Virus record (IMG/VR): IMGVR_UViG_2695420820_000005 | Direction: 5' to 3' (one strand) | DNA length: 17,115 bases | Source of the DNA: a virus | Taxonomy: Duplodnaviria; Heunggongvirae; Uroviricota; Caudoviricetes | In this document: piece by piece, positions 9,001 to 12,000 of the stretch | Numbering within the stretch: the stretch's first letter is position 1 | How the letters are laid out: every line of letters begins with the position of its first letter | Made by a program: the position numbers

Positions 9001-12000
9001 GTTATGCCAACGCTGAAGATGAGCAAAAAACGCATTACAGCGATACCCGCTGGCATGAGGATTCCGTGCGTAACCGCTGGTTCAGCGTGATGGCGGGGCC
9101 GTCTGTGCGCGTGAATGAATGGTTCAGCGCGTATGCGATGGCGGGCGTGGCTTACAGCCGTGTGTCGACCTTCTCCGGGGATTATCTCCGCGTAACTGAC
9201 AACAAGGGGAAAACGCACGATGTGCTGACCGGAAGTGATGGCGGTCGCCACAGCAACACGTCTCTGGCGTGGGGGGCTGGCGTGCAGTTTAACCCGACCG
9301 AATCCGTGGCCATTGACCTTGCTTATGAAGGTTCCGGCAGTGGTGACTGGCGCACTGACGGTTTCATCGTGGGTGTCGGTTATAAGTTCTGATTAGCCAG
9401 GTAACACAGTGTTATGACTGCCCGCTGGTTCAGGCGGGCTTTTTGTGGGGTGAATATGGCAGTAAAGATTTCAGGTGTACTGAAAGATGGGGCGGGTAAA
9501 CCTGTCGTAAATTGTGCGATTGAACTGCGGGCCAGAAGAACCAGTCCGACCGTTGTGGCACACGTTGTTGCCACTTGCGTGACGGACAATAACGGTGCTT
9601 ATGTGATTGAGGCTGAGCCGGGGTATTACGAGGTTGCGCTTCACTGTAACGGCTGGCAGCCAACCCGTGTCGGGGATATTGATGTGGCACCGACTGATGC
9701 ACCGGGGACACTGAACGCGTTTCTGAATGCACCAAAGGATGGTGATTTACGTCCGGAGGTGATGAAGTGTCAGCGCCAGTGATATAAGACGGTAATTCGC
9801 CATTTGGATTGTCCGCTCCACCCAACATGTTGTTTCCTTAAGGTTCTCACACCAGAAAGGACATCAACATGCTGAGCAGAGAGGACTTTTACATGATAAA
9901 GCAAATGCGCCAGCAGGGCGCGTACATCGTCGATATTGCGACTCAGATTGGTTGCTCTGAACGGACGGTCAGACGCTACCTCAAATACCCTGAACCGCCA
10001 GCCAGAAAGACNGACGCTGACGCTCGACCGTGAAATCACGCTGCCATCCTCCGGCACCACGCTGATAAGCCTGGTTGACGGGCAGGGGAATCCGGTCAGC
10101 GTGGAGGTCCAGTCCGTCACCGACGGCGTGAAGGTAAAAGTGAGCCGTGTTCCTGACGGTGTTGCTGAATACAGCGTGTGGGGGCTGAAGCTGCCGACGC
10201 TGCACCAGCGATTGTTCCGCTGCGTGAGTATCCGTGAGAACGACGACGGCACGTATGCCATCACCGCCGTGCAGCATGTGCCGGAAAAAGAAGCCATCGT
10301 GGATAACGGGGCGCACTTTGACGGCGACCAGAGCGGCACGGTGAATGGTGTCACGCCGCCAGCGGTGCAGCACCTGACTGCCGAAGTCACCGCAGACAGC
10401 GGGGAATATCAGGTGCTGGCGCGCTGGGACACGCCGAAGGTGGTGAAGGGCGTGAGCTTCCTGCTCCGTCTGACCGTAACAGCGGATGACGGCAGTGAGC
10501 GGCTGGTCAGCACGGCCCGGACGACGGAAACCACTTACCGCTTCACACAACTGGCGCTGGGGAACTACAGGCTGACAGTCCGGGCAGTAAATGCGTGGGG
10601 GCAGCAGGGCGATCCGGCGTCGGTATCGTTCCGGATTGCCGCACCGGCAGCGCTGTCGCGGATTGAGCTGACGCCGGGCTATTTTCAGATAACCGCCACG
10701 CCGCATCTTGCGGTTTATGATCCGACGGTACAGTTTGAGTTCTGGTTCTCGGAAAAGCGGATTGCGGATATCAGGCAGGTTGAAACCACAGCACGCTATC
10801 TTGGCACGGCGCTGTACTGGATAGCCGCCAGTATCAATATCAAACCGGGCCATGATTATTACTTTTATATCCGCAGTGTGAACACCGTTGGCAAATCGGC
10901 ATTCGTGGAGGCTGTTGGTCAGCCGAGTGATGATGCATCCGGTTATCTGGATTTTTTCAAAGGCGAGATAGGGAAAACCCATCTGGCTCAGGAGCTGTGG
11001 ACGCAGATTGATAACGGTCAGCTTGCGCCTGACCTGGCTGAAATCAGGACGTCCATTACGGATGTCAGCAATGAAATCACGCAGACCGTCAATAAGAAAC
11101 TGGAAGACCAGAGTGCGGCAATTCAGCAGATACAGAAGGTTCAGGTTGATACAAATAATAACCTGAACAGCATGTGGGCTGTGAAGCTGCAGCAGATGCA
11201 GGACGGACGCCTTTATATCGCGGGTATTGGTGCCGGTATTGAGAACACCCCTGACGGCATGCAGAGTCAGGTGCTGCTGGCGGCGGACAGGATTGCGATG
11301 GTTAATCCTGCGAATGGCAACACAAAACCGATGTTTGTTGGTCAGGGCGATCAGATATTCATGAACGACGTGTTCCTGAAACGCCTGACGGCCCCCACCA
11401 TTACCAGCGGTGGAAATCCATCGGCATTTTCCCTGACTCCGGACGGAAAGCTGACCGCTAAAAATGCGGATATCAGTGGCAGTGTGAATGCGAACGCCGG
11501 GACGCTCAACAATGTCACGGTAAATGAAAACTGTACGATTAAGGGCATGCTGGAGGCGACTCAGGTCAGAGGTGACTTCGTTAAAGCTGTATCCAAATCA
11601 TTTCCGAAACAGGCTGGTACGTGGGGTAACACGGAAACACCAAACGGGACGGTTACAGTCACCATAAGCGATGATCATAACTTTGACCGCCAGATTATTA
11701 TTCCGCCCATTATTTTTAACGGTATAGCGTATGACGATCCGGGGAGCGGAAATAACCCAGGAGGCACGCGATACACGGGTTATGGTTTTGAAGTTCGCAA
11801 AAACGGCGTATTAATCGCATCCAGAGAAACTAAAGGTGCCATTCCCGGTAGTTACAGTGCAGTTATTGATATGCCTAGTGGTGGTGGTAGCGTCACTCTG
11901 GAGTTTAAGATTTTCCAGAAAGGCAATCAGGGGGCAGGCAATATCACCGACTGTACGGTGATTGTGACCAAAAAAGCGGCTTCCGGCATCAGTATTCGTT

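Follow-up and report, generated by a model that had tools for sequence, protein, structure and literature searches.

The window analyzed here is a 17,115-nucleotide stretch of tailed-virus DNA (IMG/VR record IMGVR_UViG_2695420820_000005), in which a side tail fiber gene, stf, of a lambdoid prophage runs directly into the left end of the insertion sequence (IS) IS21. The window is made up of five pieces, separated by runs of N at 1954-1976 and 7248-7268 and by single N positions at 6120 and 10012. Because of these gaps, and because the pieces overlap one another in the tail tip gene J, the window is a scaffold, or else a concatenation, built from draft contigs of lambdoid prophage tail regions. 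The piece 7269-10011, which contains no N, has the junction between stf and IS21 at its right end. Three loci served for comparison: the stf prophage locus of enteroinvasive Escherichia coli (EIEC) CFSAN029787 (L001), a complete IS21 copy and its surroundings on the large plasmid of the same strain (L002), and the corresponding locus on the closed chromosome CP010829.1 of Shigella sonnei FORC_011 (L003).

A truncated stf gene joined to IS21

The stf open reading frame (ORF) extends from an ATG at 9456 to a TGA at 9780-9782 and encodes 108 amino acids, with an alternative start at ATG 9414 giving a 122-amino-acid version of the truncated product. Its first 104 codons (9456-9767, plus strand) form the tail-attachment N-terminal domain of a side tail fiber. 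Pfam assigns residues 1-104 to PF08400, "Prophage tail fibre N-terminal" (1e-36; 126 bits against a cut-off of 26.6), and the fragment also matches phrog_2636, "tail fiber protein" (1e-53). Directly upstream lies lom, encoding an Ail/Lom outer-membrane protein (8793-9392, plus strand; PF06316, 4e-129, full length). The Pfam and PHROG tail fiber matches, together with lom upstream, identify the ORF at 9456-9782 as the stf of a lambda-like tail operon. J and lom precede stf in the window, and a gene encoding a DUF4376 protein follows both the stf remnant of L003 and the intact stf of L001.

All 104 residues are identical to those of the intact 470-amino-acid Stf of CFSAN029787 (L001 6157-7569). 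DNA colinearity with L001 ends at window position 9767, the third base of codon 104 (K), so that the native protein ends in DLRPEVMK. Translation and the alignment of the junction with L001 show that the rest of the reading frame, Cys-Gln-Arg-Gln-stop (9768-9782, plus strand), is encoded by the IS: past VMK the intact gene reads CGCTTTGAGG (VMK-RFEEMV), and the window reads TGTCAGCGCCAGTGA (VMK-CQRQ-stop). The PF08400 match is itself cut, covering profile positions 1-104 of 134. With the stop falling after 104 native codons, the C-terminal shaft and receptor-binding region are absent from the truncated stf; relative to the intact Stf, 366 C-terminal residues have been lost, presumably the receptor-binding part among them.

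The original prediction, that an IS21-family element interrupts stf about 100 codons in, is thus borne out after codon 104. It had also placed the loss of homology after DLRPE, with a stop nine codons later. The stop is there, but the break was called three codons too early and the count does not hold, since seven codons and the stop follow DLRPE and only four of the seven are foreign. The early call arose because the comparison had been made with the other stf of the window (12648-15737), a distant paralog that shares the RPE motif and then diverges. The spacing of 86 bp between the stf stop and the next ATG, at 9869, proved exact, with an AAGGA motif 8 nt upstream of that ATG.

From 9768 to 10011 (plus strand), the window corresponds to element positions 1-244 of IS21, all 244 bp being 100% identical to copies that RefSeq annotates as "IS21-like element IS21 family transposase istA" (10 records listed). 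The same bases occupy L002 3001-3244, within a complete 2130-bp IS21. Window base 9768 is the first base of the element, and the join falls on the terminal TGT of the inverted repeat. The left terminal inverted repeat, TGTCAGCGCCA, lies at 9768-9778 (plus strand) and pairs with the right end of the complete copy, whose reverse complement, TGTCAACGCCA, matches it at 10 of 11 positions. The L002 element spans TGTCAGCGCCA to TGGCGTTGACA with imperfect 11-bp terminal inverted repeats, carries both istA and istB, and lies inside an IS629 remnant, flanked by a 4-bp duplication, GTTA; the window holds only the left 244 bp of such an element. The terminal motif recurs farther inside, as TGTCCGCTCCAC, at 9810-9821 (plus strand; 9 of 12 positions identical to the terminus), and the full IS21 has a similar sequence, TGTCCGCTTTCCAC, close to its right end. 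IS21 termini are described as carrying multiple terminal repeats, and the inner motif fits that description; it is a probable, still putative, second binding site for the transposase IstA.

The second ORF (9869-10011, plus strand) comprises the first 47 codons of istA and is cut by the scaffold gap. Its ATG is the annotated istA start (WP_000952382.1), and the 101-bp leader between the element's end and this start is that of known IS21. The 47-residue fragment alone matches the helix-turn-helix (HTH) families HTH_23 and HTH_7 of Pfam; its best NCBIfam match is NF033546 (IS21 family transposase), far below the cut-off, as expected for 47 residues. The full-length IstA of L002 (390 amino acids) scores 284 bits against NF033546 (cut-off 160), and the accompanying IstB scores 302 bits against NF038214 (cut-off 200). 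The combination of an HTH with a DDE transposase domain that characterizes IstA is therefore found through the 100% identity of the window's segment to a copy with a full IstA. The original prediction had read this ORF as an HTH N-terminus of the IS21/IS100 IstA type, and the transposase homology on which that reading depended is present. At 100% nucleotide identity the element is, by sequence, IS21 itself. IS100 was considered as an alternative identity and is ruled out by the same identity to IS21. The IS21 prototype was described on plasmid R68.45.

Contiguity stops at the N at 10012, after IS21 position 244, so that the contig does end inside the IS, as had been noted. An assembly break of this kind is expected from a short-read assembler, because IS21 is repeated in the genome. 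In E. coli genomes that carry IS21, the number of sites ranges up to 15, with a median of 1. S. sonnei 53G has 12 IS types, IS21 among them (PMC7373316), and nine IS21 insertions were inferred to be common to S. sonnei lineage ancestors (PMC7373316, supplementary tables; Hawkey et al. 2020). Further chromosomal IS21/istB loci of S. sonnei are given in a 2026 resource paper (PMC12795559), and these sources uphold, for S. sonnei, the earlier suggestion that the IS is multi-copy.

Conservation and decay of the locus in Shigella sonnei

The exact 108-amino-acid product is encoded in the closed chromosome CP010829.1, which belongs to S. sonnei FORC_011 (PMC5447701). A 20-mer search for the junction also recovered it in seven short draft contigs with CX accessions; these published loci have the identical truncated protein and the identical junction. 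The seven contigs stop 31-53 bases into IS21, and the window assembly reaches 244. Other CX-prefixed S. sonnei drafts are credited to Holt et al. 2012 (strain table, PMC5447701), and the genomes of Holt et al. were built from reads of roughly 59 bp (PMC7373316), which is consistent with contigs that stop at this depth in the element. The 122-amino-acid version is indexed in 543 blocks of an assembly collection, mostly from contigs of 5-10 kb. Draft contigs of this size are explained by the interval between two flanking repeated elements, IS600 and IS21, which is of that length.

The same 40-bp stf/IS21 junction is present, exactly, in 11 long contigs from independent assemblies, FORC_011 included, which rules out a resemblance by chance. 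Each of the ten beyond FORC_011 carries this junction and has at least four of the five junctions described below for the decay of the copy in exact form; two error-rich assemblies each lack one exact 40-mer among these decay junctions. In the closed assemblies the stf frame does not continue past the insertion; an uninterrupted frame would have told against the original prediction. On this comparison of assemblies, both the insertion into stf and the decay that followed appear to be conserved in S. sonnei. Outside this lineage, EIEC relatives carry an intact stf, and the junction was not found in closed E. coli genomes, 0 of 5,426 of which cover at least 80% of window positions 9300-10011. 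Exact-pattern scans of the genome_contigs collection (one genome per species), one for the left junction and one for the right junction predicted from a duplication of 3-8 bp, gave 0 matches each and are uninformative. The zero counts are probably due to the collection having no separate S. sonnei species genome. GTDB taxonomy places S. sonnei within E. coli.

In FORC_011 the copy can be followed beyond the point at which the window stops. IS21 positions 1-428 occupy L003 10313-10740; a complete IS600, flanked by a 3-bp GTT duplication, follows at 10741-12002; IS21 then continues to its position 1098 (12003-12677) and is succeeded by a partial IS600 of 1177 bp in the opposite orientation (12678-13854). 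The stf gene resumes from 13855, at the equivalent of L001 6902. Missing from L003 are IS21 positions 1099-2130, which comprise the last part of istA, the whole of istB and the right inverted repeat, as well as 433 bp from stf and 85 bp from the second IS600. The copy stops at IS21 position 1098, and istB is absent from the site, in all closed S. sonnei loci examined. Because the deleted part includes istB and the right inverted repeat, the IS21 copy at stf is an immobile, truncated relic: compared with an active IS21, it is split by IS600 and lacks positions 1099-2130.

In the comparison of L003 12650-12705 and 13825-13885, IS21 position 1098 was observed to join the interior of IS600, 85 bp from the IS600 end. 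The deletion is not a simple transposase-end event, because this junction has no IS terminus on either side.

The two remaining checks of the insertion concern the far side of the element. The 3' remainder of stf lies outside the window and was located in the closed S. sonnei genomes, where it is present beyond the IS but shortened by 433 bp; the stf 3' remnant and the DUF4376 gene downstream stand in the same orientation and are 95% identical to L001 6902-8113. The pair of IS terminal repeats with a target-site duplication is not visible at this locus: the left repeat, TGTCAGCGCCA, is present, the right repeat of the window's IS21 copy is absent from both the window and the closed genomes, and the right half of IS21 is deleted in 11 of 11 long loci. 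No target-site duplication is visible because the right half of IS21 and 433 bp of stf have been deleted. From the 4-bp GTTA duplication of the L002 copy, the target site is predicted to be GAAG (9764-9767), the last four bases of the native stf sequence before the element.

Proposed history and competing explanations

We consider an insertion of IS21 into the stf of an S. sonnei lambdoid prophage, followed by IS600 insertion and deletion, to be the best explanation of the locus, with a probability of roughly 95%. Members of the IS21 family encode IstA, a DDE transposase, and IstB, an AAA+ ATPase that aids target capture, and they duplicate a few base pairs of their target. In the proposed history, IS21 would have entered stf in the S. 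sonnei lineage prior to the radiation of the sampled genomes, landing between codons 104 and 105, oriented as the gene is, and presumably duplicating GAAG. The terminus of the element would then have supplied four codons and a stop, leaving a 108-residue product with the N-terminal tail-attachment domain only. Under simple transposition, the intact right junction would have read GGCGTTGACA-GAAG-CGCTTTGAGG. A complete IS600 would later have inserted at IS21 position 428, generating the 3-bp GTT duplication, and a second IS600 farther along stf, before a deletion took out the stretches of IS21 (1099-2130), stf (433 bp) and the second IS600 (85 bp) that are now missing. The prophage either was already, or would have become, a remnant in which IS600 replaces the interval that ran from the antiterminator gene Q up to the final 112 codons of H, the tape-measure gene. 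The junction, the identity of the element, the nested arrangement and its conservation are direct observations; the order of these events, the GAAG duplication and the presence of the same downstream structure in the window's own strain are what we infer.

Several points weigh against this history. The right IS end and the target-site duplication are not observed at the stf locus, so that simple transposition is deduced from the exact join at the left end, and an intact IS21 at the stf site was not found in any genome, either in the closed E. coli set or by the pattern scans. The window itself stops at IS21 position 244, and the nested IS600 structure is seen only in other genomes. Moreover, over the whole piece 7269-10011 the window differs from L003 at 24 positions, all within J and lom; over 8835-10011 the two are identical base for base. 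The 24 differences probably reflect prophage paralogs collapsed in the window assembly.

The absence of a demonstrable target-site duplication also leaves room for an origin other than direct transposition, in which the IS21 end was moved beside stf codon 104 by a secondary rearrangement, whether an adjacent deletion or inversion mediated by IS21 or recombination between two IS21 copies, and in which the far flank was not originally stf. The closed genomes are missing 433 bp of stf along with the right half of the IS, and several rearrangements associated with IS600 have affected the region, both of which such an origin would accommodate. Against it, the 3' part of stf and its DUF4376 partner lie just downstream, as an insertion with a local deletion predicts, and the order of lom, the 5' part of stf, the IS, the 3' part of stf and the DUF4376 gene is colinear with the intact EIEC prophage. 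We regard a rearrangement of this kind as very unlikely.

Still less probable is that the junction is a chimera of assembly or scaffolding and that stf is really intact. The scaffold is messy: it has four N gaps, its copies of gene J overlap, and it contains an artefactual ORF of 1932 amino acids. The piece bearing the junction, however, contains no N, 18 independent contigs share the junction, the closed FORC_011 chromosome among them, and stf is joined to the IS inverted repeat at precisely its terminal base. These observations effectively rule out a chimera. That the short ORF is instead a short stf allele that occurs naturally and is functional, or a boundary of modular recombination between tail fiber genes, with the IS-like sequence incidental, would suit the mosaic nature of tail fiber genes, whose N-terminal domain is a known exchange module and is all that the two stf copies of the window share, but is scarcely credible given that the sequence after codon 104 is 100% IS21 from its terminal base rather than a fiber module and that the PF08400 domain is itself cut, at 104 of 134 profile positions.

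Remnant status, relatives and other parts of the window

The other boundary of the prophage remnant is also formed by an IS. The end of an IS600 occupies window positions 1-32 and abuts a fragment of the tape-measure gene, the last 112 codons of H (gpH; 34-369; phrog_6747, 2e-67), which is fused to the IS600 end. This junction of IS600 with the H fragment is shared by all closed S. sonnei loci examined, where pieces of IS600 come directly after the Q antiterminator gene and are succeeded by the H fragment. The lysis, packaging and head genes and most tail-shaft genes are gone, and only the last 112 tape-measure codons remain; the prophage is a remnant unable to make particles. The original prediction that this prophage copy would lack side tail fibers is correct, but the loss has no consequence for a virion, because the remnant is without lysis, packaging and head genes.

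Most of the closed genomes examined have the stub ORF and a J ORF of 1159 amino acids in intact form. We regard it as very unlikely that S. sonnei keeps and exploits the 108-residue stub together with the intact M-L-K-I-J-lom tail-tip genes of the remnant, instead of their being neutral debris; if kept, they might serve as a module derived from the tail tip, as a decoy or as a domain for attachment.

Among closed E. coli genomes, the best DNA match is the prophage of CFSAN029787, which shares the gene order L-K-I-J-lom-stf at 97.7% DNA identity, along with the first 104 Stf residues. Its stf (WP_046880233.1, 470 amino acids) is uninterrupted and is followed by the DUF4376 tail fiber partner gene. 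The published S. sonnei loci have the same IS600/H junction as the window start, and L003 differs from the window by the 24 J and lom positions. A natural stf frameshift removes the side tail fibers of lambda PaPa. There, too, the side fiber gene is knocked out and the J tail tip kept; however, lambda PaPa owes this to a single-base frameshift and is a viable phage, whereas the present case involves an IS insertion in a remnant that makes no particles.

The observation is confirmed, and its interpretation as IS21 in stf is supported. The locus is already contained in published S. sonnei genomes and is not new. About half of S. sonnei pseudogenes are directly due to IS insertion (Hawkey et al. 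2020, PMC7373316). The interrupted stf is one more case of the IS-driven gene decay typical of Shigella and has little import beyond annotation. For annotation, the 108- or 122-residue "prophage tail fiber N-terminal domain-containing protein" is properly described as a pseudogene fragment. The stf/IS21 junction (9767/9768) and the IS600/H junction (32/33) together constitute a lineage marker, by which the source of the first scaffold is identified as S. sonnei.

The sequences beyond the prophage end differ between the relatives compared. In the EIEC locus, a frameshifted gene for an ipaH-type effector of the type III secretion system (ipaHe; L001 8323-9965) lies past stf and the DUF4376 gene, as cargo at the prophage end. 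In the corresponding place, just beyond the prophage remnant, S. sonnei carries four ABC-transporter genes on the opposite strand (L003 15300-18749) with the Pfam assignments ABC-3, ABC-3, ABC_tran and ZnuA. These are probably sitABCD, encoding an iron/manganese transporter. The transporter genes are split in six Nanopore-style assemblies (L012 and L016-L020), probably by sequencing frameshifts.

Within the window, the pieces 1977-6119, 6121-7247 and 7269-10011 overlap one another in gene J, with 89-98% identity between the overlaps. The J sequences of several prophages are thereby strung across N gaps, producing at 2927-8725 the 1932-amino-acid ORF, which is an assembly artefact. A similarly oversized J call (1919 amino acids) was observed in the draft contig L004.

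Beyond the single-N gap at 10012, the sequence resumes in the middle of gene J of a different prophage, 10013-11534 matching J at about 90-91% identity. The whole of 10013-17115 is a second prophage tail end, comprising the 3' part of J, a short lom, an intact stf and the tail fiber assembly gene tfa. This lom encodes 160 amino acids and lacks 77 bp corresponding to L001 5971-6047. The second stf (12648-15737) encodes 1029 amino acids and is annotated as stfR in a near-identical E. coli locus. In the 3' part of tfa (15737-16318), a full-length match to the Rfam family IS009 (RF02111) lies at 16080-16278 on the plus strand (218 bits against a gathering score of 117). Between tfa and an IS1 end, 16320-17068 is a very AT-rich stretch of about 750 bp with no ORF of at least 60 amino acids; it is 99.5% conserved in several E. 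coli chromosomes and has no annotated gene in the locus of E. coli strain 104. The window ends 47 bases into the IS1 terminal inverted repeat (GGTGATGCTGCCAACTTACTGATTTAGTG; 17069-17115), at the place where strain 104 carries IS1A, so that the second contig, too, breaks in a repeated IS.

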